64,000 nt of DNA. Origin: Bacillota bacterium (GTDB lineage Bacteria; Bacillota; Bacilli; Paenibacillales; UBA4045). The notes under the pieces were generated by a model. That model searched no databases, was not told the DNA's origin, and was given only the letters and a program-made list of their open reading frames with translations. The stretch lies in contig JAEZQY010000001.1 in NCBI GenBank assembly GCA_023441055.1, positions 81,032 to 145,031 on the forward strand, given 5' to 3'. Made by a program: the position numbers and the translations under genes. Shown piece after piece: positions 6,112 to 42,716 of this stretch (its first letter is position 1; the number at the start of each line of letters is the position of its first letter).

Positions 6112-6137
6112 AAATTCTCGCCTCCTAATAGATTCAA

Positions 6138-6464
6138 TTATTGTTGGACATCCTTGCTCTGCAGCTTCTCCAGATACTCTTCAAGTCGATCGAGACGAGC
6201 TTCCCAGATGCGGCGATAGGCACTAAGCCATTCATCAAGTTCCTGGAACGGCTCGGCCTGCAGCTGATAGATCCGCTTATTCGCTGCGGGCCGTACGCTC
6301 ACTAATCCTGCTTCGTTGAGTACACGCAGATGCTTGGAGGCTTGGGGCTGATTCAGTTCCAATCGATCTGCGATCTCGCCTACTGAGAGCGGGCCGTCGA
6401 GCAGAAGCTCTACAATCTCTAATCGGTTAGGTTCAGCTAGGGCGCTGAATGTTGTCGCATTCAT
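6138..6464 (-). CDS. ArsR/SmtB-family transcriptional regulator
   Basis: 108 aa with a winged-HTH pattern (LAEPNRLEIVELLLDGPLSVGEIADRLELNQPQASKHLRVLNEAGLV). Confidence 0.8.
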   Translation of the reverse strand: MNATTFSALAEPNRLEIVELLLDGPLSVGEIADRLELNQPQASKHLRVLNEAGLVSVRPAANKRIYQLQAEPFQELDEWLSAYRRIWEARLDRLEEYLEKLQSKDVQQ

Positions 6465-6605
6465 GATCCGTCAACTCCTCTGAAACCGAGTATACCACAC
6501 TTGGAATATTCCTGTAAAGGAATATACAGAGCAAAAAAAAGAGATTAACTGTTACATTTCTCATATAAACTTGCATGGTAGTATGGTAATATACTAATAA
6601 AGTGA

Positions 6606-7346
6606 ATGGAGGCGATCGGTATCCGCGATAAGACGAATCCAGATCAGGATAAGGCTGTACTAGAAACAATACGCGCTAAGTATGCTCATCACTCGAGCAG
6701 CGAAGCGGTGTATCTTACGCTGAAGGAAGCGATCGTGCAGCTGCTGCTTAAACCTGGCGAGCAGATCTCCGAGAATGAGATCTCGACCAGATTGAATATC
6801 AGCCGAACCCCAGTGCGCGAGGCGTTCATTCGGTTATCGCTCGAGCAGCTGTTAGAGATCTACCCGCAGCGAGGAACGTTCGTAGCGAGGATCGATCTGG
6901 AGCAAGTAGAGGAGGCTAGATTCGTCCGTGAGCATCTGGAATCAGCAGTGGTTAGGCTGGCTGCTGAGACGTTCAATGCGGAGCATCTATTCGAGCTGGA
7001 GACGAATCTAATGCTGTTCGAGCGGATGCTCGCAGAGAAGAACCACAGCAAGCTGTTCGAGCTCGATGAGCAATTTCACGAGACGATCGCTAAGGGCTGC
7101 GGCAAGGGGCGTATCTGGACGATCATCAAGCAGATGAAGGCGCATCTCGATCGCGTCCGGATCTTATCTCTGGTTGCAGAGTATCATGGGAACGAGATTC
7201 TAGAGCAGCATCATGCCATCGTGTCGGCCATACGCTCCCGTCAGCCTGAACAAGCCGAGGAAGTGATGACGAAGCATCTCCATCTGGTTCTATACGATCT
7301 AGATGCGCTGCAACGGGATTATCCCGACTATCTGAAGAGGGAGTGA
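6606..7346 (+). CDS. GntR/FadR-type transcriptional regulator
   Basis: N-terminal GntR HTH (ISENEISTRLNISRTPVREAFIRL) plus a helical FCD-like C-domain. It sits immediately upstream of uxuA. Confidence 0.8.
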   Translation: MEAIGIRDKTNPDQDKAVLETIRAKYAHHSSSEAVYLTLKEAIVQLLLKPGEQISENEISTRLNISRTPVREAFIRLSLEQLLEIYPQRGTFVARIDLEQVEEARFVREHLESAVVRLAAETFNAEHLFELETNLMLFERMLAEKNHSKLFELDEQFHETIAKGCGKGRIWTIIKQMKAHLDRVRILSLVAEYHGNEILEQHHAIVSAIRSRQPEQAEEVMTKHLHLVLYDLDALQRDYPDYLKRE

Positions 7347-23362: not shown

Positions 23363-23610
23363 TAATATAACGCTCCTCTCGTATTCCACATCCTCAGTCC
23401 AAGGACATTGTATAATAGAATGATAGATATGGTAAATGGTGTTAAAATGTAACGTTATGTATCATCTTGTCGATCCATGTGTAAATGCGTCCCTTACCGC
23501 TCGATTTGTAAAGAAATTGCGTATTCGCTATCATGAATACCAACGAACATAGGAGCGTTGTAAGCAATCAAGCTAGTCATTTCTGAGTGGAGGTGGATGA
23601 TGTGAGCAAT

Positions 23611-24453
23611 ATGAACAACAACTGGCGATTTATAAATTCAGGGCCGTGCTCGCCTGCGGAGAACATGGCGATAGACGAAGCGATTTTGACCAGTCACAGC
23701 AAGGGGCTAGTGCCTCCAACTGTACGATTCTACGGCTGGAGTCCAGCGACGCTGACGATTGGTTATTTTCAGAAGGCGGATGAAGAGGTGAATTTCGAGC
23801 GGCTGCATGCCCGCGGACTCGGCTTCGTGCGGCGTCCAACAGGCGGCAGAGCCGTGCTGCATGATGCAGAGCTGACATACAGCATCATCGTGTCAGAGGA
23901 TTATCCGGGTATTCCGAGTACCGTGAATGAAGCTTATCGGGTGCTGAGTGAGGGGCTGGTGCATGGGTTTCGCAGACTCGGCTTGCAGGCGGAGATGGTC
24001 AATCTGTCGAGCGAGGAGGACAAATCGAAGATGATGACAGGCTCGGCTGCCTGCTTCGATTCGCCTTCCTGGTATGAGCTCGTTGTTGAAGGACGCAAGG
24101 TCGCGGGCTCTGCGCAGGTCAGACAGAAGGGCGTCGTGCTGCAGCATGGCTCGATTCTGCTGGATCTGGATGTTGACCTGTTGTTCGAGGTGCTGCAATT
24201 CCCCAGTGAACGTGTCCGGGAGCGCTTGCGGGCATCCTTCACGGAGAAGGCTGTAGCCATTAATGATGTGAAGCGCAGACTGGGGCACGCGGAAGTGAGC
24301 TTGACAGAGGCTGAGGCGGCATTTCGAAGCGGATTAGCGGAGGGTCTCGGCGTTGAGCTGGAGTCCGGCGATCTGTCCGAATGGGAGCGGGAGCTTGCGC
24401 TGCAGCTCGTTCTGGAGAAGTACGGTCACCGGGATTGGAATTTCCGCAGATGA
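23611..24453 (+). CDS. lipM: Octanoyltransferase LipM (lipoate-protein ligase family)
   Basis: About 280 aa in the LplA/LipM family (WRFINSG...ENMAIDEAIL...RFYGW.PATLTIGYFQ). Synteny with yqhH/yqhG matches Bacillus yqhM=lipM. The start is ambiguous (GTG 23587/23602 or ATG 23611). Confidence 0.75.
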   Translation: MNNNWRFINSGPCSPAENMAIDEAILTSHSKGLVPPTVRFYGWSPATLTIGYFQKADEEVNFERLHARGLGFVRRPTGGRAVLHDAELTYSIIVSEDYPGIPSTVNEAYRVLSEGLVHGFRRLGLQAEMVNLSSEEDKSKMMTGSAACFDSPSWYELVVEGRKVAGSAQVRQKGVVLQHGSILLDLDVDLLFEVLQFPSERVRERLRASFTEKAVAINDVKRRLGHAEVSLTEAEAAFRSGLAEGLGVELESGDLSEWERELALQLVLEKYGHRDWNFRR

Positions 24454-24479: not shown

Positions 24480-24521
24480 TGTGATGAAGATCACTAGCGT
24501 TCCTCATCAATCTTCTATAAT
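24480..24521 (+). promoter_or_regulatory. Crp/Fnr-type box plus -10 element upstream of the RIC gene
   Basis: TGTGAtgaagaTCACT (24480-24495) has its centre 28.5 bp upstream of TATAAT (24516-24521). Confidence 0.55.
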
Positions 24522-24573
24522 GAATGTATAAGCAATGAGATTTATTCTCAGTTGAATAGAAGGAGGACGTCAT

Positions 24574-25293
24574 ATGAAGCCCATTAGGATTGAGCAGAAT
24601 CGGCCAATCGGTGAGATTGTAGCTGATTTCCCGACTGCCGCGCTTATCTTCAAGAAGCACCGCATCGATTTCTGCTGCGGTGGTGATCGGCCGCTGTCAG
24701 TCGCGGCAGGCGCGAAGCAGGTCGACGTTCAGACCGTCATCGAGGAGCTGCATGCCGCATACCAGGCTGAGGCTAATCGCAAGGATCGCGGCACGGATTG
24801 GCAATCCGCGGACTACACAGCGTTAGTCGATCATGTGTTAGATACTCATCACGCCTATCTAAAGCGCGAGCTTAGCGGTATCGGCGAGTTCACGAATCGT
24901 ATTCGCAATGTGCATGGTTATCATCATCCTGAATTGCTGCGCCTCGATGAGCTGTTCCGCCAGGTGAAGGCAGAGCTTGAGGAGCATATGCAGAAGGAGG
25001 AAGCGCAAATCTTCCCGCTTGTGAAGCAATATGCGGCTGCAGGAGACAGAGAACTGCTGGCAGAAGCCGTCAAGACGATTGACGAGCTGGAGGCGGAGCA
25101 TAGCGCAGTAGGCGAACTGCTGGAGGAGATGCGCGAGATTACCGCGGACTATACGCTGCCACCGGAGGCTTGCCGGAGCTATACGGTCACATTCGAGAAG
25201 CTGGAGGAGCTGGAGGATGATATGTTCCAGCATATCCATCTTGAGAATAATATCATGTTCCCTAGACTGGAGAAGGAGCTGAGTGCCTTATGA
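24574..25293 (+). CDS. scdA: Iron-sulfur cluster repair di-iron protein (RIC / ScdA / YtfE family)
   Basis: N-terminal ScdA_N signature (HRIDFCCGGDRPL) plus a hemerythrin-like His/Glu-rich C-domain. AGGAGG RBS. Confidence 0.85.
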   Translation: MKPIRIEQNRPIGEIVADFPTAALIFKKHRIDFCCGGDRPLSVAAGAKQVDVQTVIEELHAAYQAEANRKDRGTDWQSADYTALVDHVLDTHHAYLKRELSGIGEFTNRIRNVHGYHHPELLRLDELFRQVKAELEEHMQKEEAQIFPLVKQYAAAGDRELLAEAVKTIDELEAEHSAVGELLEEMREITADYTLPPEACRSYTVTFEKLEELEDDMFQHIHLENNIMFPRLEKELSAL

Positions 25294-25577
25294 TGAAACT
25301 GCCCATGCTGAAGGAGAAGGATTGGTCGCTGAATCTGGAGGATGAAGCCTTCGTCGACAATCCGCAGGAGCTGATCGAAGAGGCAGTTAAGGCGGTGGAG
25401 ATCACCGCTGCCGGCCATTACGTGAATCTGGTGACGCCTGCTGGAACCGGTCACCCGGAGCAGGGGCTGCTCGGCGAAATCAAGCAAGCTATCGATCGCG
25501 CAGGTGTCGCTTATCAACAGATTGTTTACGTGGACGAATGCGGATGCGGCGGCTTCGTCACCAGAGTATATCGATAA
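25290..25577 (+). CDS. Small conserved protein with a C-terminal CGCGG motif
   Basis: 95 aa ending ...YVDECGCGGFVTRVYR. Its ATG overlaps the RIC stop (ATGA, 25290-25293), which implies translational coupling. Confidence 0.6.
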   Translation: MMKLPMLKEKDWSLNLEDEAFVDNPQELIEEAVKAVEITAAGHYVNLVTPAGTGHPEQGLLGEIKQAIDRAGVAYQQIVYVDECGCGGFVTRVYR

Positions 25578-25595
25578 TTTGCATTAGCTTTTGAG

Positions 25596-25706
25596 GTAGT
25601 TTTGTTGCGATGATTACTCAGGGGGTATAGCTTCACAAAACTAAGCGTATGCTTCCGAAGTAGTTTTGTTGCGATGATTACTCAAGAGGTATAGCTTCAC
25701 AAAACT
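25596..25706 (+). repeat. Two copies of a 47-nt hairpin-capable element (64-bp period)
   Basis: GTAGTTTTGTTGCGATGATTACTCA[G/A]G[G/A]GGTATAGCTTCACAAAACT occurs at 25596-25642 and 25660-25706. Each copy has AGTTTTGT...ACAAAACT inverted ends. No T-run follows either copy. Confidence 0.85.
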
Positions 25707-25723
25707 TGGAGGAGGAACTAATC

Positions 25724-26065
25724 ATGGAAATCAAATCCTTAGGTCCATTGCGAGAGTTCGGCGAGGAACGCTTCACGAAGAGAATTATTCACAAGAAGGA
25801 TGAAAGTGTCGTATTCGTGTTAAACTTCGAGCCGGGACAGGAGCTGCCTACGCATAACCACCCGGGGACGGCTGTCTACATTCTGGTATTATCCGGCTCA
25901 GGCGAGGTGGTGATTGACGGGACGCCGTCCGCAATTACGGAAGATGATGTGGTATGGGTCGATGGAGCAGAGCAGTTCGCGTTCAAGAATACCGGCAGCG
26001 AGCGCGTTACGCTCTATGTCATGCTGGCGAAGATTCCGGATGAGCGATTCGCGCAGAATATCTAA
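25724..26065 (+). CDS. Cupin-domain protein
   Basis: Cupin motif (PTHNHPGTAVYILVLSGSGEVVIDG). GGAGGAGG RBS precedes the ATG at 25724. Confidence 0.75.
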   Translation: MEIKSLGPLREFGEERFTKRIIHKKDESVVFVLNFEPGQELPTHNHPGTAVYILVLSGSGEVVIDGTPSAITEDDVVWVDGAEQFAFKNTGSERVTLYVMLAKIPDERFAQNI

Positions 26066-26083
26066 TGAATGGAGGCTGGCGCG

Positions 26084-27349
26084 ATGACGGCGTCCAAGGC
26101 ACCCACTAATTTATACATTCTGCGATTAAGTTTCATACACTTCGCGACCGGCATCCTGCTATTACTGACAGCGATGCTGGCCGCTATCTGGCTAATTCCG
26201 GATATCGCGCAACTGGGCACATTCCGAGTGACAGAAGGGTGGCTGCTGGCCCATCTGCTGCTGCTCGGCTTCGCCTCCATGACAGCGATCGGCGCGAGCT
26301 ATCAGCTAGTGCAAGTCATCATGCGCACCGCACTGTTCAGCCGGCCGCTCGGATACGTCCAGTATGTCTGCTATACAGTCGGTCTGCTGCTCATCCTGCT
26401 CGGTTTCGGCTGGCGAATCCAGTTCGTGGCGCCGGGCGGCACGCTTGTCATTATCGGCATTATACTATACTGCGTTAATATGGGTATGACCTTGCTGCGC
26501 AAGCGCGAGTGGAACCCCTTCGTGCTGGGGATTGCGCTCAGTGCGGCCGCCTTCCTAGCGGCAGGTGTCATGGGCACGCTGCTGGGGCTGTATCTGGCGG
26601 GGAATCTGCCGTCTGCGCTGTCTGCGCTGGAGTACGATGTACTCTTCGGCAGCCATCTGTGGCTAGGGATCGGCGGCTGGCTGTCCGGTCTGATCGTGGT
26701 GTTCAGCTTCAAGCTGCTGCCCATGTTCTATGTGTCACCCAAGAAGGTGACCAGACAAGTGTATGCGATTATAGGCGGCTTCCACACAGGCATTGGGCTG
26801 CAGGTGGTGTCACTGTGGCTTAGACAAGATACGCTTACGCTGGCAGCTTATCTGATCATTGGCGGTTCAGCGGTCTGGTTCACGATCTACTTGTTCCGGG
26901 TACGTGCACTCAGCCGCGCGAAGTCGCCAGTCGGTGCTGTGCGGACAGCCTTCTGGCTTATCCCATTACATACCGCGCTGTTCCTGCTATGGGGCGCGAT
27001 GATCCAGCTTCATATAGCAGAGGACCTACTCCATGAGAGCGTTCTGGCGTTCATAACACTAGGGTGGTTCATCCCTTCAATCTTAGCCTATCTGTCCAAA
27101 ATACTGCCATTCCTCTGGTGGGCGCATCGGTTCCGTACCGGGGCGCAGAAGAAGGCAGCTGTGCTGCTCTCTGAGATGCTGCCAGAGCGTCGGCTGACGC
27201 TGGAGCTGACTGGATACATAATAGGCGCTGCCTTACTGTCAATTGGCTTCTACTACGGTTCTGCCGCAATTGTGGTATTAGGGCAGGTGCTTATGACGGG
27301 CTTCCTGCTGGTCTATCTGTGTGAGCTGACCCGCACCTTCCGATACTGA
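26084..27349 (+). CDS. 12-TM His-bearing integral membrane protein, paralogue 1 (NnrS-like / haem-copper-oxidase-subunit-I-like; family not verified)
   Basis: About 12 hydrophobic helices. Blocks are shared with the protein at 36541-37773 (GW..AHLL.LG.A.M...GA.YQL; H.WLG..GW......FSFK.LPMFY.S; .LAYLSKI.PFLWW.H.). GGAGG lies 8 nt before the ATG at 26084, which is 18 nt past the cupin stop at 26063-26065. Confidence 0.6.
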   Translation: MTASKAPTNLYILRLSFIHFATGILLLLTAMLAAIWLIPDIAQLGTFRVTEGWLLAHLLLLGFASMTAIGASYQLVQVIMRTALFSRPLGYVQYVCYTVGLLLILLGFGWRIQFVAPGGTLVIIGIILYCVNMGMTLLRKREWNPFVLGIALSAAAFLAAGVMGTLLGLYLAGNLPSALSALEYDVLFGSHLWLGIGGWLSGLIVVFSFKLLPMFYVSPKKVTRQVYAIIGGFHTGIGLQVVSLWLRQDTLTLAAYLIIGGSAVWFTIYLFRVRALSRAKSPVGAVRTAFWLIPLHTALFLLWGAMIQLHIAEDLLHESVLAFITLGWFIPSILAYLSKILPFLWWAHRFRTGAQKKAAVLLSEMLPERRLTLELTGYIIGAALLSIGFYYGSAAIVVLGQVLMTGFLLVYLCELTRTFRY

Positions 27350-27454
27350 TGTAGCTGATAATGGAAATCTTAAGAAGCACGCTATATCTAGGGTGCGTTG
27401 GGTTATAATGGTATAGTGGGATCATAAAGCTGAATCGATAGGGGTGTCTAGTCG

Positions 27455-29137
27455 ATGGACGATCAGGATTTGCGAATACGCAGTCATGTGATTAGCGAGG
27501 GAACCGGCCGCGCGCCGAATCGAGCCATGCTAAGGGCGGTCGGGTTTACGGATGCAGACTTCCAGAAGCCGATGATTGGCATAGCCAGCACCTGGAGTGA
27601 AGTGACGCCATGCAATATGCATATCGATCAGCTCGCCGTGCATGCCAAGCAAGGAGCTAAAGATAATGGCGGAGCGCCGCTAACCTTCGGTACGATTACG
27701 GTATCAGACGGGATTGCGATGGGGCATGTCGGGATGCGCTACTCGCTCCCGAGTCGGGAGGTAATCGCCGATTCGATCGAGACCGTTGTAAGCGCAGAGC
27801 GATTGGATGGTCTAGTAGCGATTGGCGGCTGCGACAAGAATATGCCAGGCTGTCTAATCGCTATGGGGAGGCTGAACGTCCCTGCTGTATTCGTGTACGG
27901 CGGTACGATTGCGCCGGGTGATCTACACGGACAGGATATCGATATTGTCTCCGCCTTCGAGGCAGTTGGACAATTCAATCAGGGCAGTATCAATTCAGAG
28001 CAATTGTATGACGTCGAGTGCCATGCTTGTCCGGGAGCTGGCTCCTGCGGGGGTATGTATACGGCGAATACGATGGCTTCCGCTATCGAGGCAATGGGAA
28101 TGAGCTTGCCGGGCAGCTCATCGAATCCGGCGGAGACGTCGCTCAAGCAAGAGGATTGCTTCAAGGCCGGACAGGCGGTAGTCGATCTGCTACGCAAGGG
28201 AATCTATCCGCGGGATATCATGACTAGGCTGGCGTTCGAGAATGCGATCACTGTGGTGATGGCGCTGGGCGGGTCGACGAATGCCATCCTGCATCTGCTC
28301 GCCATGGCTCATGCGGTTGATGTTGATCTGACGCTGGACGACTTCGAGACAATCCGCGCTCGTGTGCCGATGCTGGCGGATATGAAGCCGAGCGGCCGCT
28401 ATGTCATGCAGGATCTATATGAGGCAGGCGGTGTCCCGGCTGTTATGAAGCTGCTGCTGGATGAGGGGCTGCTTCATGGTCACTGTATAACTGTTACTGG
28501 CAGGACCGTCGCCGAGAATCTGGCTGATCTTCCCGGATTGGTCGATGGTCAGGAGGTCATCCGACCGATGTCCAATCCGGTGAAGGCATCAGGCCATCTG
28601 GTCGTGCTGAAGGGGAATCTGGCACCGGAGGGCTCCGTTGCCAAGACATCAGGCCTCAAGTCAACGCGATTCATTGGGCCGGCGAGCGTGTTCGATTCCG
28701 AGGAGGAAGCAACCACTGCGCTGCTGGAGGATCGGATTCAGCCAGGTGATGTGATCGTCATCCGCTATGCCGGACCGAAGGGTGGACCAGGTATGTCCGA
28801 GATGCTAGCGATTACAGCGATTGTAATCGGCAAGGGCTTGAACGAGCAGGTTGCGCTGTTAACAGATGGACGCTTCTCAGGTGGGACGCACGGCTTCGTA
28901 GTCGGGCATATTGCCCCTGAAGCTCAAGTCTGTGGACCGATCGCGCTCATCCAGGACGGCGATATCATTACCATCGACAGCGAGACGCGAGAACTCAGCG
29001 TTGACGTATCGGAGGCTGAGCTCGCAGAGCGACGCCAGACCTGGGTCGAACCGCCACTCCGCTATAATCGAGGTGTGCTGTACAAGTACGCGCAGCTCGT
29101 CTCCTCGGCCTCTAAAGGCGCGGTTACTGATTTGTAA
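27455..29137 (+). CDS. ilvD: Dihydroxy-acid dehydratase
   Basis: 560 aa with typical IlvD blocks ([37 protein letters not shown]). Confidence 0.95.
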
Positions 29138-29387: not shown

Positions 29388-30440
29388 ATGTCAGATAATA
29401 TGGGGATTAACATTAATAAAGTACAATTGGATAACTATGTATTTAGCGGTATTGATGCCTCTTTAGTCGGTGCGATTAAATCAGTTGCTGATTATTATCA
29501 ATTTCCATTGACAACATCATGGATATATGGAATGTCAGGGCTTGCTTTCTTGCACGTACTTGATGAAAACTTAATGGAACCCAATGGAGGACCATCTGAA
29601 CCAGAGGTTTTTAATCTTGTACGTAATATTGGTTTAGAAATAGATGGTCTGCATGTTTATGCAGAAGGTGAAGACTTTTCTAACCTGCAAGCTGTAGCAT
29701 GGGAGAAGGCACAACTAGCCATTACCTCAAAGCAACCAGTTTTCGCAAAAAATATTGATATCGGGAGCCAAACATCAGTTATTTATGCTTATGATGAAGT
29801 CGGTTATTATACACGAACATGGCATACTGGATATGAGAACAGTGAAGACGTCATTCCTTGGAACTTACTAGGCTTAAGTCAATGTCCTTGTATCAACTGC
29901 GAAAATTATCGGAATTCAATCAACCAAACGGTTAACTTAGAAAGTGGTTTGATTTCTTTACACTGGGCTAATCCAATCCAACCAGTAGATGAATTGACTG
30001 CTTTTAAAGAAACACTTGAATTTGTTATACGTTTAAACGAAGAAGGAAGCTATGTGTGGGCGGGAAAAACTTATTTGGTGGGTTCGAAAGCTTATGAAAA
30101 ATGGTTAACTGCTTTGGAAAGTGATAGTGTGGATAAATACTTTTTTAGCCTATTCGTCGAGATTTTATATGAAGCAAGAAGCCATGCAATTAAATTTCTG
30201 TCGGAAATAAAAGGGAGGAACTTTGGGATAAGTGAACAATTGATTGATGCCAGTATAAATAAATATAGTGATGTTTCTGCTGAATATAAAATTTTGAGAG
30301 ACATGTATCCATATCAAGAACCACGTGATAGCGAAATAAAGCAAAAAGAACAGTGTATTGCTATCGTAGCGAAGTTGCATCAATTAGAGATGGACTGTTT
30401 AAAATTCATAAAAAAAATCCACAAAAGCATATCACAATAG
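29388..30440 (+). CDS. Hypothetical protein encoded on an AT-rich island (possibly BtrH_N/DUF4872-like; unverified)
   Basis: 350-aa ORF with a GGAGGTG RBS. The DNA is conspicuously AT-rich compared with the flanking genes. I recognise no catalytic motif with confidence. Confidence 0.55.
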   Translation: MSDNMGININKVQLDNYVFSGIDASLVGAIKSVADYYQFPLTTSWIYGMSGLAFLHVLDENLMEPNGGPSEPEVFNLVRNIGLEIDGLHVYAEGEDFSNLQAVAWEKAQLAITSKQPVFAKNIDIGSQTSVIYAYDEVGYYTRTWHTGYENSEDVIPWNLLGLSQCPCINCENYRNSINQTVNLESGLISLHWANPIQPVDELTAFKETLEFVIRLNEEGSYVWAGKTYLVGSKAYEKWLTALESDSVDKYFFSLFVEILYEARSHAIKFLSEIKGRNFGISEQLIDASINKYSDVSAEYKILRDMYPYQEPRDSEIKQKEQCIAIVAKLHQLEMDCLKFIKKIHKSISQ

Positions 30441-30484
30441 CTGAATGGACTAACGGGATACGATACCTCAATGGCATCAGGCTT

Positions 30485-30790
30485 TTGATAGAATGGCTGG
30501 AGCGGATGAATCGGGCGATAGACTATATTGAAGCGAATCTGACCGAGGAGATCGAATTGAACGAGGCGGCCCGCATGGCCTGCTGCTCGTCTTACCAGTT
30601 CCAACGGATGTTTTCGTTTATTACGGACGTGACGTTGGCAGAGTACATTCGGCGGAGACGGTTGACGCTTGCTGCGTTGGAATTGCAACACAGCGGGGCG
30701 GCGAAGGTGATCGTGTGGCGGAGATTTGCCATCGTTCGTCAGCGGGGATTTGCATCTCGTTCATGCGGCATGCAGCTACCGGAAGACTAG
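30485..30790 (+). pseudogene. Truncated AraC/MarA-type regulator remnant
   Basis: The first HTH is intact (..EWLERMNRAIDYIEANLTEEIELNEAARMACCSSYQFQRMFSFITDVTLAEYIRRRRL). After ...LQHSGAAKVI the sequence degenerates and stops. The second HTH and any effector domain are missing. Confidence 0.55.
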
Positions 30791-30988: not shown

Positions 30989-31225
30989 TCAGGCAAGCTT
31001 GCTGATCTGTACTTGAAAGGTGATGGGACCTTGCTCCACATACTCCCAGCTGTATCCGCCCGGATACATGGATTGGAACTGGAAGTGCAGCGGCTTCGGG
31101 TCGTGGTCGTTAATCAGCAGCATCGCCTCACTCGGATTCAGCTTGGCGAAGGTTTCGAAGATGACTTTATGTTTTAGATGGGGCGGGTATTCGGTAGCGT
31201 TCACTGTTGCAGCATATTGACTCAT
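30989..31225 (-). CDS. DUF2249-domain protein (single domain)
   Basis: 78 aa from MSQYAATV. The pattern ...PPHLKHKVIFETFAKLNPSEAMLLINDHDPKPLHFQF...WEY.EQGP..F.V.I is the DUF2249 pattern as I recall it. AAGGAGGAG RBS. Confidence 0.65.
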   Translation of the reverse strand: MSQYAATVNATEYPPHLKHKVIFETFAKLNPSEAMLLINDHDPKPLHFQFQSMYPGGYSWEYVEQGPITFQVQISKLA

Positions 31226-31264: not shown

Positions 31265-31307
31265 AGTGTAGCAATATGCGCTCAGCACCTGTGTGATGCG
31301 AATCACA
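31265..31307 (-). promoter_or_regulatory. Crp/Fnr-type box plus -10 element upstream of the DUF2249 gene
   Basis: A perfect TGTGAtgcgaaTCACA (31292-31307) has its centre 29.5 bp upstream of TACACT (minus strand, 31270-31265). Confidence 0.55.
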
Positions 31308-31397
31308 TTGTATCATGTCGCACACAATAGACTTAACCTCATCAAGTATTAGGGAATTTCCAGCGGCTAGTTTATAATGAATGGAGGAGGTGCAGCG

Positions 31398-32387
31398 ATG
31401 AAATTTATCGATAATCAAGGGATAACCGATCCACGCATCAATCTTGCGATCGAAGAATATGCGCTCAGACATCTGGATCAGGAGGACGATTACCTCTTGT
31501 TCTATGTGAATGAGCCCTCGATTATTATCGGCAAGAATCAGAATACCGTCGAGGAAATTAATCAGGCCTACGTGGAGGAGCACAGCATTCATGTTGTTCG
31601 AAGATTATCGGGTGGAGGCGCCGTCTATCATGATCTGGGCAATCTGAATTTCAGCTTCATTACCAAGGATGACGGACAGTCCTTCCATAATTATAGAAAG
31701 TTCACGGAACCAGTAGTGGAGGCACTGCATAAACTCGGCGTACAAGCGGAGCTTACCGGACGCAACGATATACAGGTAGGAGAGCGTAAAATTTCCGGCA
31801 ATGCGCAATTCGCGACCAAGGGACGGATGTATTCGCATGGCACGTTAATGCTCCAGACGGACCTGGAGGAGGTGACACGCGCTCTCAAGGCGAATAGGGC
31901 GAAAATTGAATCCAAAGGGATTAAGTCGATTCGCAGCCGAGTGGCGAACATCTCTGAGTTTCTGCGTGAACCAATTACCATGGAACAATTTAAGGATCAT
32001 CTATTAGCTTCTATATTCGGTGGCGGCCAGCGTGAGCAATATGTGCTGCAGGAGGACGATTGGCGCAGAATCGAAGAGATCTCAGCTGCTCGCTATCGGA
32101 CCTGGGAATGGAACTTCGGCAAATCACCTGCCTATAATGTGACAATCTCACGCCGGTTCGAAGGGGTAGGCACGCTCGACATCCGGCTGCAGGTGGAGGG
32201 AGGAATGATCGAATTCGTGAGAATCTTCGGTGATTTCTTCGGAACAGCGGATGTGCAAGAACTGGAGGAGCGGCTGGTGGGTGTGCCTTACAGCCGCGCT
32301 GAGATTGAGGAAGCCTTGGGCAAGCTGGATTTGAAGCCTTATTTTGGCAGGTTGGAGAGCGGGTTGTTCTTCGAGTTGTTCACATAG
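31398..32387 (+). CDS. lplJ: Lipoate--protein ligase
   Basis: MKFIDNQGITDPRINLAIEEYAL...RRLSGGGAVYHDLGNLNFSF is typical of the LplA/LplJ family, and a C-terminal accessory domain is present. GGAGGAGG RBS. Confidence 0.9.
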   Translation: MKFIDNQGITDPRINLAIEEYALRHLDQEDDYLLFYVNEPSIIIGKNQNTVEEINQAYVEEHSIHVVRRLSGGGAVYHDLGNLNFSFITKDDGQSFHNYRKFTEPVVEALHKLGVQAELTGRNDIQVGERKISGNAQFATKGRMYSHGTLMLQTDLEEVTRALKANRAKIESKGIKSIRSRVANISEFLREPITMEQFKDHLLASIFGGGQREQYVLQEDDWRRIEEISAARYRTWEWNFGKSPAYNVTISRRFEGVGTLDIRLQVEGGMIEFVRIFGDFFGTADVQELEERLVGVPYSRAEIEEALGKLDLKPYFGRLESGLFFELFT

Positions 32388-33699: not shown

Positions 33700-34689
33700 T
33701 CAGTGACTCATCGGCTTGGCACCATTGTCCTTGCCATCTTCGGTCACTCTTAGTATCGCCACCGCACCCTTGCTCGCATGGTTGAACTGATGGGTCACAA
33801 TGGCGTAGTCGCCAGCTTCTGTGACAGTGAATTCAACTACCGCGCCGCCGCTTGCTGGCAGCATGACCGTCTGCATTCCCTTCAGCACATTAGCGGGATT
33901 ACCATCCAGGTAGACGTTGTCCATGATCGTGCCCACGACGTGAAGGGAGCTTACTTCATTCGGGCCTACGTTGTTCACATAGAGGCGAACCTTGTCGCCG
34001 ACCTTAGCCAGCAGGGGCTTCTCCTTAAGGCCGAAGTCATTGCCGTTGAATACGACGTAGGAGGGTACACCGTTCAGGAAGTCACTGTAATCCTTCTCCT
34101 TATACCATTCGCTCTGTACGATTACATATTCCTGATCGATCTCAGCGTCAGTAGGATAGCCTTCAGTTGGCTCTACGATAATTACACCATACATCCCGTT
34201 CGCGATATGGGCCAGTACTGGTGCGGTTCCACAGTGGTACATGAATACGCCTGGCATATTGGCGGGATAAGTGAAGGTGCCTTCTTCTTCGGGCATGATA
34301 TCGATGAATTTCTCACTCGGCGATGCATGCACCGCATGGAAGTCCATGGAGTGGGGAACATCGGGATCGAGATTCTTCAGTGTGAAGTTAATGATATCGC
34401 CTTGCTTAACACGCAGTACAGGCCCCGGCACAGTGCCGTTGAATGTCCAGGCGTTATAGAATACGCCCTTGGAGATCTCCACATCAGTTACCTGCGCGGT
34501 CATCTCAATATTGACAATGTTGCCGTTACGCTCGACAATCGGTTCGATGGGCGGCTGGTTGATCTTCGCAGGGGCTGCAGCTTCTGCTGCTGGCGGATTA
34601 GACACAGGTGCTGCTTTGTTAGATCCACACCCGGTTAAAATCAATGCGATGGCGGACAGTAAGATGGCAGTTTTCTTTATGGCTAGCAT
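33700..34689 (-). CDS. nirK: Copper-containing nitrite reductase (NirK), lipoprotein form
   Basis: Lipobox LTGCGS. Type-2/type-1 Cu ligand blocks are present (PHSMDFHAVH; MYHCGTAPVLAHIANGMYG). It has a two-cupredoxin length of about 330 aa. ATG 34689 follows AAAGGTGA. Confidence 0.85.
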   Translation of the reverse strand: MLAIKKTAILLSAIALILTGCGSNKAAPVSNPPAAEAAAPAKINQPPIEPIVERNGNIVNIEMTAQVTDVEISKGVFYNAWTFNGTVPGPVLRVKQGDIINFTLKNLDPDVPHSMDFHAVHASPSEKFIDIMPEEEGTFTYPANMPGVFMYHCGTAPVLAHIANGMYGVIIVEPTEGYPTDAEIDQEYVIVQSEWYKEKDYSDFLNGVPSYVVFNGNDFGLKEKPLLAKVGDKVRLYVNNVGPNEVSSLHVVGTIMDNVYLDGNPANVLKGMQTVMLPASGGAVVEFTVTEAGDYAIVTHQFNHASKGAVAILRVTEDGKDNGAKPMSH

Positions 34690-34798
34690 GAGAATCACCT
34701 TTCCTTCTTATAATTGTGATTTCCTTCTCAACCAGCCGGAAAAAGTTTTGCCTGTCTGTTCGAGCTATCATCCGCTATCGGCTGGTTCTTATGATTCA

Positions 34799-34841
34799 AG
34801 CTTACGTTTTTAAGGAGAAACCAAATGTGATTGAGAACACA
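34799..34841 (-). promoter_or_regulatory. Crp/Fnr-type box plus -10 element upstream of nirK
   Basis: TGTGAttgagaACACA (34826-34841, 9/10 match) has its centre 29.5 bp upstream of TAAGCT (minus strand, 34804-34799). Confidence 0.45.
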
Positions 34842-34876: not shown

Positions 34877-34918
34877 ATAAAAAATCAGGTAATGTGATGA
34901 TAATCACACTGCCTGATT
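34877..34918 (-). terminator. Terminator of the crp-GNAT unit (its stem contains a perfect TGTGAT-N4-ATCACA palindrome)
   Basis: Minus strand reads AATCAGGcagTGTGATtatcATCACAttaCCTGATTTTTTATT, a long hairpin plus a T-run. Confidence 0.7.
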
Positions 34919-35422: not shown

Positions 35423-36109
35423 TCACTTCACCAATAGCTCCTTCAGTCGATCAATGTCATATATCACATAACCAGTGCGGTCGGTTTCCAGGATACCATC
35501 CTTGCGCAGCTGGTTGATCAGTCGATTAACCGTCTCGCGAGTTGTGCCGATCGTGCTGGCGAACTCCTGGTTAGTCATTGGAACATTGATATGGATCGCG
35601 CCGTCTCTGGATGTACCGTACTTCTCCGCTAGGGTCAGGAGGAAGGAGAGGCCGCGGTCCTGCACGTCATTACCTGTCAACTCCTGCAGCTTGCGCTGCA
35701 GCTCTTCGATCTTCGTACTGAGTCCTCGCATCACCTTGATTGATATTTCGGGAATACGAATCAGAAGCTGCTCGAATGAACGAATGGGAATAGCCAGCAG
35801 CTTGGTATCGACGATGGCCTCTGTTGTTGCAGGGTAGGGATGTTGATTGAACAATCCCGTATGCGGGAACATCTCGCCGGATTTCAGGAAGGAGACAATA
35901 TGCTCATTGCCATTCTCATCAGTCTTGAATGCCTTGACCAGACCGTCCTGTATGAAGTATACCGCTTCCTTATCATCGCCTTCGATGAAGATAATCGTCC
36001 GCTTGCGGTAAGAACGTTGAATGGTAATGGTGTGGATCTGCTCCAATTCTTCATCGGTAAGGTCACGGAACAATGGAACCTTGCGTAGAATCTCCAATTC
36101 ATGCTTCAT
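35423..36109 (-). CDS. Crp/Fnr-family transcriptional regulator (cysteine-free)
   Basis: cNMP-binding-type beta-roll (LRKVPLFRDLTDEEL...) plus a C-terminal HTH with recognition helix TRETVNRLINQL. The 228-aa translation contains no Cys. Confidence 0.85.
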   Translation of the reverse strand: MKHELEILRKVPLFRDLTDEELEQIHTITIQRSYRKRTIIFIEGDDKEAVYFIQDGLVKAFKTDENGNEHIVSFLKSGEMFPHTGLFNQHPYPATTEAIVDTKLLAIPIRSFEQLLIRIPEISIKVMRGLSTKIEELQRKLQELTGNDVQDRGLSFLLTLAEKYGTSRDGAIHINVPMTNQEFASTIGTTRETVNRLINQLRKDGILETDRTGYVIYDIDRLKELLVK

Positions 36110-36156: not shown

Positions 36157-36189
36157 CCCCTTCAATAAAGTATAACCTTTTTTGAAGGG
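36157..36189 (-). terminator. Terminator after the DUF59 gene
   Basis: CCCCTTCAA / TTGAAGGGG stem. On the minus strand it is followed by a T-rich tract. Confidence 0.65.
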
Positions 36190-36204: not shown

Positions 36205-36513
36205 CTAGAAAAACGATAGCTGCTCCTTAGCCGCATCAGACATCTTCTCAGGTGTCCATGGCGGGCTCCAGACGACGTTCACATGCACAGCGTTTACCGC
36301 TGGCAGTCCCAGCAAGGCTCGCTCCACGCCGCCAGCTATTGTATCATGCATCGGGCAGCCTGGCGTAGTCAGTGTCATCGTGACGGTAACAATGCCGTCG
36401 TTATCTTGTTCGATGGCATAGATAAGTCCCAGATCAACAATATTCACGCCAAGCTCGGGGTCATAGACCAATCGCAGCTGGTCCATAATCAATTCCTGAT
36501 CAGTTAACATCAT
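36205..36513 (-). CDS. DUF59 / SufT-like metal-sulfur cluster assembly factor
   Basis: VYDPELGVNIVDLGLIY...TLTTPGCPMHD is the DUF59 signature. ATG 36513 follows GAGAGGAGTGG. Confidence 0.8.
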   Translation of the reverse strand: MMLTDQELIMDQLRLVYDPELGVNIVDLGLIYAIEQDNDGIVTVTMTLTTPGCPMHDTIAGGVERALLGLPAVNAVHVNVVWSPPWTPEKMSDAAKEQLSFF

Positions 36514-36540
36514 TTCCACTCCTCTCAGAATCGTAATAGA

Positions 36541-37773
36541 TCAACGTAAGAATACATTCGCGATCAATCCCATATAGCCGATCGAACTGATCGACAGCAG
36601 GCAGCCGCCGATCGTGATAAGCGGCATAACCGATGTGCCGATCCCGATCACGAGCAGCGCGAGGCTCGCTGCGATCAGGCTCAGCCCGATCCGTACATAC
36701 CGGTCATTGATCAGGTCAGACATCGTGGGAATCTTCTTCTTCCCGACCTGCGGGCCGTACTTATGCGTCCACCATAGGAAGGGCACGATCTTGGACAGAT
36801 AGGCCAGCATCGTGATGCCCAGAAACCCCCATAGGTAAATCCAGCCCAGCATCGTGCTGATGCGCACCTGCAGCACCTGGTCTGGCACAGCAGCAGCGGC
36901 GATCAGCACAATCAGGCTCACCAGTAGCAGCATTCGCGCCGACCAGATGGACCAGCGTATGCCCTCGCCCGGATTAGGCTTATGCTTGGCTCGTCGAATT
37001 TGCCGAATGTGATAGCTGTATAGGGCGAGTGCGGTGACAAGGAGGAGCAGGGCGAACCACTTCGCTAGATCATGCCAGTCCAGCAGGAAAGCGACGGCGC
37101 CGAGCGCGGCTGATGCATGCCAGAGATGTACGATATACTTCTGCAAGGTTTCGGAATGGCCGTGCGATAGATAGAACATCGGCAGCATCTTGAAGCTGAA
37201 GCCGATGATCAGCAGCCCAAACCAGCCGATCATACCTAGCCAGATATGCGCGTGGAAGATCTGCTCATGCATGAAGCTCCACCAGCCGAACGCGAAGTTC
37301 ATGCCCATTGCCATTCCGCTGAGACCTGTGAAGAAGAGGTAGACTACAGCGAGTCCCGCGCTGACCGTGATGGGTGTCCACTTACCGGCACGTACCAGAG
37401 TGGCAAACAGATTGATCGCGAATAGAATAATTCCGATATAAGCGACGGTGGCCGAGATGCCGATCAGCATGAAATTTGCTTGGTAGAAGCCGACCAGCAA
37501 GCCTGCAGAGCCAATGGTGAACACGCCATAATTAGTGAAGCCCAGCTTCTCACTGAAGATATTGGATTGCAGCACCACATTGATCAACTGATACACAGCA
37601 CCCATTGCAATCATCGTAGCCCAGCCGAGCACGAGCAGATGCGCGCTGAACCAGCCTTGGGGGCTGCGCGGATGCTCACCGATCCAGCCTGCCGCGTCAG
37701 CAAGATTGAAGCCCTGAAACAGGAAGAAGCAGACCATGCCAGTTATAATGAATGAGAAGGGGAGTCGGAACAT
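36541..37773 (-). CDS. 12-TM His-bearing integral membrane protein, paralogue 2
   Basis: 410 aa, alignable by eye over its whole length with 26084-27349 (same conserved His-containing blocks). AGGAGG RBS. Confidence 0.6.
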   Translation of the reverse strand: MFRLPFSFIITGMVCFFLFQGFNLADAAGWIGEHPRSPQGWFSAHLLVLGWATMIAMGAVYQLINVVLQSNIFSEKLGFTNYGVFTIGSAGLLVGFYQANFMLIGISATVAYIGIILFAINLFATLVRAGKWTPITVSAGLAVVYLFFTGLSGMAMGMNFAFGWWSFMHEQIFHAHIWLGMIGWFGLLIIGFSFKMLPMFYLSHGHSETLQKYIVHLWHASAALGAVAFLLDWHDLAKWFALLLLVTALALYSYHIRQIRRAKHKPNPGEGIRWSIWSARMLLLVSLIVLIAAAAVPDQVLQVRISTMLGWIYLWGFLGITMLAYLSKIVPFLWWTHKYGPQVGKKKIPTMSDLINDRYVRIGLSLIAASLALLVIGIGTSVMPLITIGGCLLSISSIGYMGLIANVFLR

Positions 37774-37790
37774 GGCGTGATCCTCCTAAC

Positions 37791-38342
37791 TTAAGATTTC
37801 GTTATCGTTACAATGGCAGACCCATCTTCTTGATTATCAACGCTATAGGTGTAATTGAGCGCATGGAGTTCTTCAATCAGGAACATGGGCACGCGATCAT
37901 TGTGAATAACCACCTGATCGCCAGCTGAGGCGCTGCTCAGCTTGGCTAATGTACGCACCATCGGCTGTGGCGGCTCCAGACCGCGATTGTCGAGCATGAA
38001 TACACGAGGCTCCGCGGCGGAATCACCCTGAGCTTCAGCAGACGCGTCACCCAGCTCATCATCCGCAGGCGCATCAGAGTGAGTAGCCTGATCACCAGTC
38101 AGCAGATGCTTCATACTCTTATGAACGAAGGTCGTGATCCAGTGCTCATCACCGACCTTCTCCACCTTGTTGTGGAAGCCCTTGGTCTTCATTAGACCGA
38201 GCAGAGGAGTCGGCTTGAACGTGGCATGCAGGACGAATAAGTCGTCCTTCTCCAGCTTCTTCACCGCATCCATAATTAGCTGGAATGGCTCCAGCTTCTT
38301 CTTCAATTGCTCTCTAACATCGAGCTCGATAGTCCGCGTCAT
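37791..38342 (-). CDS. Protein with two DUF2249-like domains joined by an acidic linker
   Basis: Domain 1 runs IELDVRE...LFVLHATFKPTPLLGLM...HWITTF. Domain 2 runs MLDNRGLEPPQPMVRTL...VVIHNDRVPMFLIEEL...GSAIVTITK. The start overlaps the upstream stop (ATGA). Confidence 0.6.
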   Translation of the reverse strand: MTRTIELDVREQLKKKLEPFQLIMDAVKKLEKDDLFVLHATFKPTPLLGLMKTKGFHNKVEKVGDEHWITTFVHKSMKHLLTGDQATHSDAPADDELGDASAEAQGDSAAEPRVFMLDNRGLEPPQPMVRTLAKLSSASAGDQVVIHNDRVPMFLIEELHALNYTYSVDNQEDGSAIVTITKS

Positions 38343-38683
38343 ACCGACACCTCCTTGAGCTGCTCTTTGGCTGCTTCGTACAACCCAGCCATACCGCCGT
38401 AGAGCGCATAGAAGAACGAGTCCGGCGCATCAAGCGAGAAGGATAAGTATTGCTTGGGATCGGTTCCCAGCATCTTCTCGAACAGGCTGGCGGAATCGTA
38501 GGCATAGAAGCAGAAGTAGGTGTACTCGAATTCCGGCATCTTATCGCGTATGGTCACGATGTCCTGCGCATATCGCGGGATATTCTGAGCAGCTTCCCGC
38601 ACCATGCTGATTGCATCGTCCAGCGTAACGTGAATCTGGATCGTCTTCTCGTCCACAATATCAATATGAGCCATAGGAAACAT
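38339..38683 (-). CDS. Hypothetical protein (first gene of the operon)
   Basis: 111-114-aa ORF (ATG 38683 or 38674) following AAGGAGTGG. I recognise no motif. Confidence 0.5.
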   Translation of the reverse strand: MFPMAHIDIVDEKTIQIHVTLDDAISMVREAAQNIPRYAQDIVTIRDKMPEFEYTYFCFYAYDSASLFEKMLGTDPKQYLSFSLDAPDSFFYALYGGMAGLYEAAKEQLKEVSV

Positions 38684-38717: not shown

Positions 38718-38759
38718 AGTATAGCGCTCCTTCATATTCAGAACGTGATCCTAATCACA
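38718..38759 (-). promoter_or_regulatory. Crp/Fnr-type box plus -10 element upstream of the 38683 operon
   Basis: CGTGAtcctaaTCACA (38744-38759, 9/10 match) has its centre 28.5 bp upstream of TATACT (minus strand, 38723-38718). Confidence 0.5.
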
Positions 38760-42060: not shown

Positions 42061-42291
42061 CTATACGGAACGGAAGGCGGCTATAAGCTGCTCATATTCG
42101 TCCTCGCGGCCGATGAAGTCGGAGACGGGAAAGCGGCGCTCCACCCAATCCATCATCGCGGGCCGGCTCATGAAGGTGTGACAATCTTCACCCCATTGGT
42201 CCGAAATCTCGCGCACAATAAGGGTGCGCCCTTGCACTTCGACATTCAGCATATTCCAGTTGTCCTTCTTGTAGATCTGATGAATCTTCAT
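42061..42291 (-). CDS. Hypothetical small protein
   Basis: 76-aa ORF with a GGGAGGAA RBS. No motif recognised. Confidence 0.5.
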   Translation of the reverse strand: MKIHQIYKKDNWNMLNVEVQGRTLIVREISDQWGEDCHTFMSRPAMMDWVERRFPVSDFIGREDEYEQLIAAFRSV

Positions 42292-42395
42292 CCAATCATT
42301 CCTCCCGAATCAGCAATGTCTGCTGCTACATACGATAACGAAATCATTGCTCGATTGCAAATCCTTTGATATCTTGAGATGGGGTGGATAAGCGA

Positions 42396-42716
42396 ATGGA
42401 GACATATTTCACATATGATGAACGATTAGGAATACGCTTGCCCGATCTGAATCAGCAGTGGGCCGCGTATACACAGGAAGAACAGGAGCGCATCCTGAGC
42501 GAGTGGGAGCAGATTCGGGGCAGTATCCCTGAACGGATTAAGCAGATGGAGGCCATCATAAATGAGCGGCAAGCGCAGCTGAATGTTGAGCCCGTGTTCG
42601 CGGATGCGGTGAGGCTCAATCATGAGATCGCAGACTATGCCAGCCGCATCATGGATCTGCATATGCTGTTCCGGATCGACGAGCAGCTCGAGACTGGAAA
42701 GTCGCATTCTGGCTAA
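42396..42716 (+). CDS. Hypothetical protein
   Basis: ORF starting METYFTYDERL, preceded by GGGGTGG. The helical sequence is rich in charged residues. No motif recognised. Confidence 0.5.
   Translation: METYFTYDERLGIRLPDLNQQWAAYTQEEQERILSEWEQIRGSIPERIKQMEAIINERQAQLNVEPVFADAVRLNHEIADYASRIMDLHMLFRIDEQLETGKSHSG

Follow-up and report, generated by a model that had tools for sequence, protein, structure and literature searches.

A deeply conserved trio of tandem DUF2249, heme-copper-oxidase-superfamily and DUF59 genes beside nirK in a Bacillota genome

Within a 64,000-nt stretch of a Bacillota genome (GenBank assembly GCA_023441055.1, contig JAEZQY010000001.1, positions 81,032 to 145,031), hereafter the window, we analyzed a compact minus-strand cluster of four genes, g1 to g4, situated beside nirK and a Crp/Fnr-family regulator gene. 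These four genes, together with a detached DUF2249 gene elsewhere in the window, are the Paenibacillaceae version of an ancient and widespread module. The core of the module is a trio consisting of a DrpB-like tandem DUF2249 protein, a 12-transmembrane (12-TM) protein from the superfamily of heme-copper oxidases (HCOs), and a SufT-like DUF59 protein. From sequence-based evidence, we give an even chance to the interpretation that the operon is an N-oxide-induced module for nitric oxide (NO) stress or metal-centre maintenance, in which a membrane hemoprotein would act with cytoplasmic iron or Fe-S partners. Open reading frames (ORFs) were predicted across the window, and Pfam and NCBIfam profiles were run over the window proteins. 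The cluster and its flanking signals, in order of transcription, are:

38744-38759, palindromic, no strand assigned: Crp/Fnr-type box CGTGATCCTAATCACA, one mismatch to TGTGA-N6-TCACA
38718-38723, minus strand: -10 hexamer TATACT, no -35 present
38339-38683, minus strand: g1, orphan protein, ORF of 114 aa, probably 111 aa from an ATG at 38674
37791-38342, minus strand: g2, tandem (2x) DUF2249 protein, 183 aa, PF10006 in two stretches
36541-37773, minus strand: g3, 12-TM HCO-superfamily protein, 410 aa, assigned by AlphaFold2 (AF2), Foldseek and profiles
36205-36519 from a GTG, likely start ATG 36513, minus strand: g4, DUF59/SufT-like protein, PF01883
36157-36189, minus strand: terminator-like hairpin with T-rich tail, between g4 and the regulator gene

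An initial annotation, made from the sequence before our analysis, had described four closely packed minus-strand ORFs as a single compact, co-regulated unit tied to the local Crp/Fnr regulator and nirK, and the layout of the locus supports that description. All four ORFs are present; the sequence shows g1 and g2 overlapping at ATGA (38339-38342), with g2 and g3 separated by 17 bp. The 27-bp gap given for g3 and g4 corresponds to the ATG at 36513 and not to the GTG; this ATG, which has a GAGAGGAG ribosome-binding site ahead of it, is the better start. Alignment of g1 with its homologues, which begin at M4, likewise places its start probably at 38674. The regulator gene and nirK lie immediately downstream as described, along with a GNAT gene. 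The extent of the operon needed amending: the four genes are real, and the canonical unit has five, so the window offers a truncated view. Overall, the initial interpretation is partly supported.

To place the cluster in a wider context, one genome per GTDB species was scanned, which returned 402 relatives; the best 80, all from Bacillales and mostly from Paenibacillaceae, were analyzed, and their neighbours were counted by tblastn with the window proteins. The order tandem DUF2249, HCO-like, DUF59 was found in 76 of these 80 genomes. The tandem DUF2249 gene stood directly upstream of the HCO-like gene at 76 loci and the DUF59 gene directly downstream at 77. A single DUF2249 gene was present at 54 of the 80 loci and g1 at 44, nirK lay within 6 kb at 37, and an orthologous Crp/Fnr gene (at least 50% identity) lay within 6 kb at 19. 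The commonest Bacillales architecture runs single DUF2249, g1, tandem DUF2249, HCO-like, DUF59, and 34 of the 80 genomes have a small cupin gene flanking the operon. In 15 species nirK, tandem DUF2249, HCO-like and DUF59 genes are contiguous on one strand, and at least 15 species have nirK in first place in the operon. Three Paenibacillus genomes (L055, L071 and L072; about 5300-7230) carry an HCO-like gene lacking the tandem DUF2249 and DUF59 genes, with ric directly ahead at a distance of about 30-50 bp; the box search used here found no box upstream in these three.

The same arrangement extends well beyond close relatives. Homologues only 29-44% identical to g3 have the same trio around them. 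At one of these loci (L081) the order is a DUF2249-ScdA_N-hemerythrin fusion, a hemerythrin, a DUF1858 plus tandem DUF2249 protein, the HCO-like protein and DUF59, and the third of these proteins has exactly the architecture of DrpB. A metagenome scan with a smaller alignment provided 80 further loci (L086-L165, alignments A5 and A6), whose homologues are 27-54% identical to a distant family member. The upstream neighbour was a DUF2249 protein at 59 of 61 scorable metagenome loci, 25 of these proteins carrying DUF1858, and the downstream neighbour was DUF59 at 49 of 60. Many of these operons read single DUF2249, RIC, DrpB-like, HCO-like, DUF59. RIC occurred at 20 metagenome loci, compared with NirK at 9 of 80, and Crp/Fnr genes were adjacent at 19 of 80. 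Rare substitutions were seen as well: one upstream neighbour was an Mrp/NUBPL-type P-loop Fe-S NTPase with DUF59, and downstream there was one SufE and one protein carrying ScdA_N, all of them iron or Fe-S trafficking proteins. The initial annotation had made its proposal depend on the gene order recurring in other genomes, and that order is kept in divergent metagenome lineages as well as in 76 of 80 Bacillales genomes.

The signals upstream of g1 are conserved in parallel. A Crp/Fnr-type box and a -10 element (38718-38759) had been noted there, and both were confirmed. Of the 80 Bacillales loci, 73 have a TGTGA-N6-TCACA box no more than 250 bp upstream of the first operon gene, typically 80-90 bp ahead of its start codon; at the background of 0.23 boxes per kb, about 4 loci would be expected. 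Where nirK heads the operon, it is nirK that the box precedes. In the window the centre of the box is about 31 bp from the centre of the -10 hexamer, which is class II geometry. If a class II promoter is defined by a palindrome whose centre lies about 41.5 bp upstream of the transcription start and which is kept in orthologous promoters, both spacing and conservation mark this as a putative Crp/Fnr-activated class II promoter. A sigma-70 scan of the window called no full promoter upstream of g1; this, like the missing -35, is expected of a class II promoter because it depends on its activator. Boxes with at most one mismatch are also abundant in the window as a whole (8 observed, 1.8 expected, and none of 100 shuffles reaching 8), and they stand ahead of nirK, ric and the lone DUF2249 gene as well.

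At the other end of the cluster, the hairpin at 36157-36189, previously annotated as a terminator, has a T-rich tail behind it (9-bp stem, structured 15-nt loop with 4 further pairs, dG -21 kcal/mol, z -2.9); a simple terminator scan gave no call here, and as a predicted terminator it is plausible but not strong. Its loop holds TTATACT, a -10-like hexamer identical to the operon's TATACT, which could belong to a promoter of the regulator gene. The hairpin and this possible -10 downstream of g4 are what can be said for the view that unrelated small genes are juxtaposed by chance or transcribed separately. We regard that view as having next to no prospect of being right. The ATGA overlap, the gaps of 17 and 27 bp, the conserved upstream box, and a gene order maintained in 76 of 80 genomes and around homologues of about 27-30% identity all speak against it, and synteny effectively refutes it.

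The central member of the trio, g3, had been taken for a 12-TM protein of an uncharacterised family. That assignment did not hold: by fold, profiles and internal repeats, g3 is a reduced, two-histidine type of the HCO superfamily. A library scan of the window protein gave no Pfam or NCBIfam match, and no PDB chain matched either its sequence or its close-family profile. Many relatives at 50-78% identity have a weak match to PF00115 (COX1) or go under the name cbb3 subunit I or 'heme-copper oxidase family protein'. An AF2 model of g3 built from 73 relatives (pLDDT 94, pTM 0.91) has 12 long helices, and every hit of a Foldseek search of the PDB with this model was the catalytic subunit of an oxidase (aa3, ba3, bo3 or cbb3) or of an NO reductase (NOR), with TM-scores of 0.65-0.75 at 9-16% identity. 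PF00115 was matched weakly by 46 of 73 close and 43 of 65 distant relatives; relatives scored 24-36 bits against a cut-off of 34.8. A broader family profile of diverse relatives (A3) matched Pseudomonas stutzeri CcoN (3mk7_A) with an E-value of 6.8e-9, placing TM1-3 of the family on CcoN TM9-11 and H45 on H347, the low-spin heme-b ligand. The Pfam alignment uses another register, with TM2-7 of g3 on COX1 TM6-10. The three 4-TM thirds of g3 are mutually homologous (hhalign probability 98.3-98.6%), and the register ambiguity arises from this internal three-fold symmetry. The g3 family comprises 2506 clusters at 50% identity (E at most 1e-3), and a homologue search with profile A3 mostly returned close relatives again.

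The g3 protein thus has the 12-TM three-fold core of the superfamily; it has neither the six-histidine set nor a Pfam score at the gathering threshold. Only H45 (TM2) and H176 (TM6) are invariant among 126 diverse relatives. Canonical oxidases have six metal-ligand histidines, on helix II, on helix VI, as HH on helix VII and as HxH on helix X; the last four of these, in TM7 and TM10, are absent from the family alignments. We found no partner redox subunit (subunit II/CuA, NorC or CcoO) in the window or at the 80 related loci, where the neighbours are instead DUF2249, DUF59, cupin, nirK and ric genes. A canonical oxidase or NOR was ruled out on the grounds of the absent ligands and absent partner subunits. 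NnrS (PF05940) was rejected as well, with no match at E up to 1 in 73 close relatives or up to 0.1 in 65 diverse ones. The same observations bear on whether g3 could be a new catalytic type of NO or O2 reductase. Its fold is that of HCOs and NORs, with NorB and CcoN among the top Foldseek matches, it is co-located and co-regulated with the NO-producing NirK, and new NOR families are still emerging within the superfamily (PMC11214002). Against this, the helix VII HH and helix X HxH make up the four missing ligands of six, the neighbourhood encodes no subunit II, NorC or CuA partner, and g3 itself reaches no Pfam COX1 score. We consider this possibility very unlikely.

Repeat alignment gave some indication of how the two remaining histidines may be disposed. 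In their repeat units, H45 precedes the conserved Gly-Trp by five residues and H176 by seven. On helix X of CcoN, H347 and H345 hold the equivalent positions and point into opposite pores; in g3 both histidines would line the same pore, formed by TM3-6 and closed by TM2, because of the repeat symmetry. We infer that g3 may hold one heme b near the outer face, with H45 and H176 as axial ligands, and that it has no CuB/FeB site; it would therefore be neither an oxidase nor a classical NO reductase. The cytoplasmic loops carry further conserved features, namely H204, H255, H264 and the motif WWTHKYG. Of the conserved histidines of g3, a second HCO-like gene in the window (26069-27349) has H45, H176 and H337 only, and in the alignments the cytoplasmic H204, H255 and H264 mark the branch that travels with tandem DUF2249 and DUF59.

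A heme of this kind could also make g3 an electron-transfer subunit, acting as a menaquinol:NirK oxidoreductase through its outer-face heme and leaving the soluble proteins as assembly factors. The putative bis-histidine site corresponds to the low-spin electron-transfer heme of HCOs, the NirK of the window is a lipoprotein on the outer face, nirK, found within 6 kb at 37 of 80 loci, stands at the head of the same box-controlled operon in no fewer than 15 species, and a menaquinol-dependent membrane NirK activity of unknown route has been reported in Bacillus azotoformans (PMC3475470). Yet more than half of the operons have no nirK nearby, divergent metagenome versions pair with RIC (20 loci) rather than NirK (9 of 80), and the window paralogue of g3 stands with ric and a cupin gene. 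Nor does this scheme give a role to the three or four conserved cytoplasmic partners or to the SufE and Mrp substitutions, and no quinol site was identified in g3. On balance, we judge it rather unlikely.

The soluble partners (DUF2249, DUF59 and g1 proteins) have no TM segments and at most one cysteine each. Pfam confirmed the three DUF2249 domains previously noted in the window, two in g2 (PF10006, 94.4 bits in two stretches) and one at 30989-31225 (73.7 bits), against a cut-off of 29.5. In g2 an acidic linker joins the DUF2249 pair; the protein contains no cysteine and, with a maximum hydropathy of 0.83, is cytoplasmic. The single-domain protein also lacks cysteine. A match of g2 to TusA (PF01206) is sub-threshold (26.4 bits against a cut-off of 28.6), and a TusA-like sulfur or persulfide carrier was ruled out for g2, which has no cysteine to serve as the required catalytic cysteine of a CPxP motif. 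Sequence search detected no solved structure for DUF2249. Pfam found no DUF1858 N-domain in g2, so that g2 is best described as a predicted DrpB-like tandem DUF2249 protein outside the strict DrpB definition. The lone gene at 30989-31225 is the detached first gene of the canonical five-gene operon, since the commonest architecture among relatives starts with a single DUF2249 gene. Near it, a 350-aa ORF (29388-30440, no Pfam match) overlaps a short ORF (30353-30790) with a partial match to the AraC-type HTH_18 domain; the latter, which adjoins the detached gene, may be a truncated regulator and may mark the rearrangement that split the operon.

The known DUF2249 proteins suggest a different role for the cluster. 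In Thermus thermophilus, DrpA and DrpB act on nitrate reductase at the levels of both regulation and maturation, and they are themselves dependent on DnrT, a regulator of the Crp family (PMC6282519). By analogy, g3 could sense NO, nitrite or redox state while the DUF2249 proteins relay the signal to the Crp/Fnr regulator and so tune nirK and ric. DrpA and DrpB, with single and tandem DUF2249, control Dnr regulators, their promoter Pdrp depends on DnrT, and DrpB binds the membrane without a TM segment (PMC6282519). Proteins of DrpB architecture stand directly ahead of HCO-like genes at 25 metagenome loci and L081, an adjacent Crp/Fnr gene occurs in 19 of 80 genomes and at 19 of 80 metagenome loci, and the local regulator has no sensory cysteines. 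Partners such as DUF59, SufE, Mrp/NUBPL and RIC indicate iron or Fe-S chemistry instead, most operons have no adjacent regulator, and in the Drp double mutant nitrate reductase activity is lost at the level of maturation too (PMC6282519). Signalling of this type seems to us unlikely.

The DUF59 assignment of g4 stood (PF01883/FeS_assembly_P, 71 bits against a cut-off of 23.5). Besides this profile match, g4 has the cysteine of the T-x-x-P-G-C-P motif, and TLTTPGCP is invariant in 78 orthologues. The SufT equivalogs TIGR02945 and TIGR03406 were not reached (109.1 against 143.4 and 106 against 202.6 bits). The g1 protein matched no Pfam or NCBIfam model; none of its 334 homologues has a Pfam domain, and g1 is restricted to Bacillales. 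Its invariant motifs are FCFYAYD, SFSLDAPD and LYGGM, one invariant cysteine lying in the aromatic FCFYAYD. An AF2 model (pLDDT 85) matched no fold in the PDB (best E about 1, TM at most 0.32), and the g1 profile showed no similarity to RIC, DUF2249 or DUF59. The slot of g1, between the single and tandem DUF2249 genes, is the one that RIC (ScdA_N plus hemerythrin) fills outside Bacillales, for example at L090, L091, L093 and L114-L118.

Under the maintenance interpretation that we favour, the module would manage the consequences of NO made by NirK. The operon would be driven from an activator-dependent promoter with a TGTGA-N6-TCACA box, which the adjacent cysteine-free, Dnr-like Crp/Fnr protein presumably reads. 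When nitrite or NO appears, the operon, nirK, ric and the lone DUF2249 gene would be switched on together; such joint switching is expected because the same type of box precedes each. The g3 hemoprotein would serve as a redox- or NO-interacting anchor in the membrane, and the DUF2249, DUF59 and g1 proteins might dock on its cytoplasmic loops (H204, H255, H264 and WWTHKYG). Once docked, they could protect, repair or mature iron or Fe-S centres, much as NnrS together with RIC might do. We read the function as iron or Fe-S maintenance because the set of partners consists of RIC, DUF59, SufE, Mrp/NUBPL and hemerythrin fusions. The earlier guess that the genes may protect or repair metal centres during nitrite respiration fits the RIC, SufE and Mrp/NUBPL contexts.

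Several points weigh against this interpretation. For 43 of the 80 operon copies the surrounding 6 kb contain no nirK, which makes the link to NirK a facultative one. Heme binding and the orientation of the two histidines in g3 are deduced from sequence, as is the docking of partners, and the cytoplasmic histidine cluster is confined to one subfamily. H45 aligns with a CuB histidine in the Pfam register and with a low-spin heme histidine in the A3 profile; with two registers available, the heme may instead be five-coordinate and ligand-binding. Induction by N-oxides and control by the adjacent regulator are inferred from motif conservation. We know of no experimental work on any member of this operon family. 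The initial statement that the four-gene combination lacks an experimentally defined function accordingly holds, though the DUF2249 members DrpA and DrpB have been studied.

We also put forward, as a distinctly tentative idea, that the trio is an unrecognised membrane machine. In one form, a single-heme offshoot of the oxidases would couple the menaquinone pool to cytoplasmic iron chemistry, giving or taking electrons or NO for reductive repair or de-nitrosylation of the Fe-S and di-iron centres that DUF2249, DUF59 and RIC handle. In the other, it would be the missing menaquinol-dependent electron donor, or an NO sink, for Gram-positive NirK, and g1 would then be the Bacillales replacement for RIC.

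Elsewhere in the window, the following features accompany the operon:

35423-36109, minus strand: Crp/Fnr-family regulator, cNMP_binding and HTH_Crp_2 domains
34893-34908 (perfect) and 34826-34841 (one mismatch): boxes ahead of nirK, from the box scan
33700-34698, minus strand: NirK-like copper nitrite reductase lipoprotein, TIGR02376, Cu-oxidase domains, LTGC lipobox
31292-31307, no strand assigned: perfect TGTGATGCGAATCACA box, far edge 82 bp upstream of the start codon of the single DUF2249 gene
30989-31225, minus strand: single-domain DUF2249 gene (DrpA-like), PF10006, 73.7 bits
26069-27349, plus strand: second HCO-like paralogue, 426 aa, tblastn E 2.7e-37
25706-26065, plus strand: cupin gene, directly ahead of the HCO-like paralogue
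24574-25293, plus strand: ric/ScdA, with a box at 24480-24495

The Crp/Fnr regulator is a protein of 228 aa that fell below the cut-off of every NCBIfam equivalog. It contains no cysteine for a [4Fe-4S] cluster, and an Fnr-type Fe-S O2 sensor was therefore ruled out. It is the likely reader of the TGTGA-N6-TCACA boxes. Its gene and the downstream GNAT gene share 4 bp and make up a regulator-acetyltransferase pair. The NirK-like protein matched TIGR02376 with an E-value of 1.3e-58, below the equivalog cut-off, and has the Cu-oxidase domains. Between the GNAT gene and nirK there are three boxes (34715, 34826 and 34893). The one at 34715-34730 (one mismatch), with just 17 bp between it and the nirK GTG, could be spurious or repressive. 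The TGTGATGCGAATCACA box has the same spacing to the single DUF2249 gene as is seen in relatives. Two further one-mismatch boxes lie at 42177-42192 and 17608-17623. One of the pair is 192 bp upstream of a 110-aa ORF (42384-42716, no Pfam match), in the intergenic region adjoining a TerC gene; the other falls inside an SNF2-helicase gene and is probably due to chance.

The plus-strand region 24480-29137 looks like a second N-oxide cluster, composed of a box, ric/ScdA, the cupin gene, the HCO-like paralogue and ilvD (27455-29137). The paralogue is 31% identical to g3 and begins after a 3-bp gap from the cupin gene. IlvD is an Fe-S dehydratase and a classic target of NO. Two lipoate-protein-ligase genes (LplA/B family), both on the plus strand, each stand beside a Crp-type box: one (23587-24453) ends just ahead of the ric box, and the other (31377-32387), oriented divergently from the single DUF2249 gene, has the 31292-31307 box region in common with it. 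As a speculation, these positions may reflect salvage of lipoate during NO stress, where the Fe-S-dependent lipoyl synthase would be vulnerable.

NO and denitrification regulons of bacteria and archaea repeatedly include DUF2249 proteins, DUF59 paralogues and NnrS-like relatives of the HCO superfamily. To our knowledge, 20 years of comparative genomics have yielded no mechanism for them. Our analysis makes the trio one deeply conserved syntenic unit, kept down to about 27% identity, and the Paenibacillaceae unit is wired to NirK by a Crp-type box. A vague association thereby becomes a testable system, with one putative heme site (H45 and H176) and three or four small partners, in cultivable and transformable soil bacteria. 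The system is pertinent to the question of how nirK-carrying Gram-positives that have no full denitrification pathway deal with the NO they make, which matters for soil NO and N2O emissions, and to the reuse of the oxidase fold. Reviews of denitrification genomics in Bacillus and Bacillota do not mention the operon. As far as we found, what appears to be new is that the trio is obligatory across deep divergence, that the Bacillales form has five genes with an orphan in the RIC slot, that the box is conserved, and that nirK is frequently fused to the operon. Parts of the picture have precedents: haloarchaeal DUF2249 genes are induced in denitrification, one of them fused to an Fe-S carrier NTPase (PMC11218638), and the same paper, citing Pei 2014, notes a linkage of DUF2249 to the HCO-type superfamily.

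Compared with known systems, g3 shares its overall fold with CcoN of cbb3 oxidase (3mk7) and NorB of cNOR (3o0r), at TM-scores of 0.68-0.73. It differs from both in its low identity (about 12%) and in lacking the binuclear-centre ligands, the second heme ligands, the extra helices and the redox partner subunits.

A closer parallel is offered by the HCOH/NnrS proteins. Three-unit HCOH proteins, reportedly described by Pei, Li, Kinch & Grishin in 2014 (Protein Sci 23:1220), are said to have two conserved histidines and probably one heme. The NnrS protein is a member of the NO regulon (PMC1274295) and is needed for NO resistance (PMC3345576). Like g3, HCOH/NnrS proteins have 12 TM helices in three 4-TM units, two conserved histidines and a place in NO or denitrification regulons. 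By that definition (see also PMC11218638), g3 with its three 4-TM units, two histidines and N-oxide context is a three-unit HCOH protein. In contrast, none of 138 g3-family sequences (from two overlapping alignments) matches the NnrS Pfam model, and the g3 branch has obligatory tandem DUF2249 and DUF59 neighbours and its own cytoplasmic histidine cluster.

We take COG4309 to be the DUF2249 family. In rhizobia and beta-proteobacteria COG4309 is co-transcribed with norB (Rodionov et al. 2005, PMC1274295), so that a small uncharacterised protein accompanies an HCO-superfamily membrane protein there as it does here, and the authors suggested that COG4309 serves the HCO protein (PMC1274295). The regulators are the NO-responsive NnrR, an FNR-like factor or the Rrf2-type repressor NsrR (PMC1274295). 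The partner in that system, unlike g3, is a bona fide NO reductase.

RIC/YtfE/ScdA and the SufT-type DUF59 proteins are linked to the operon through its neighbours: RIC is found inside homologous operons elsewhere and, in the window, beside the paralogue, and SufT and PaaD belong to the DUF59 family and have the conserved cysteine motif that is seen in g4. The differences are that g4 scores below the SufT cut-offs and that the Bacillales operon has the non-homologous g1 in the RIC slot.

Finally, the DrpA/DrpB system of T. thermophilus differs from the operon in several respects: g2 has no DUF1858, the Thermus genes adjoin nar with no HCO-like or DUF59 partner reported, and the Paenibacillus operon has the extra orphan g1. 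What the two have in common is single and tandem DUF2249 proteins encoded together, a promoter that depends on a Crp-family regulator, and a setting in N-oxide respiration (PMC6282519). DrpB, moreover, associates with the membrane, and the divergent relatives of g3 are preceded by proteins with exactly the DrpB architecture.

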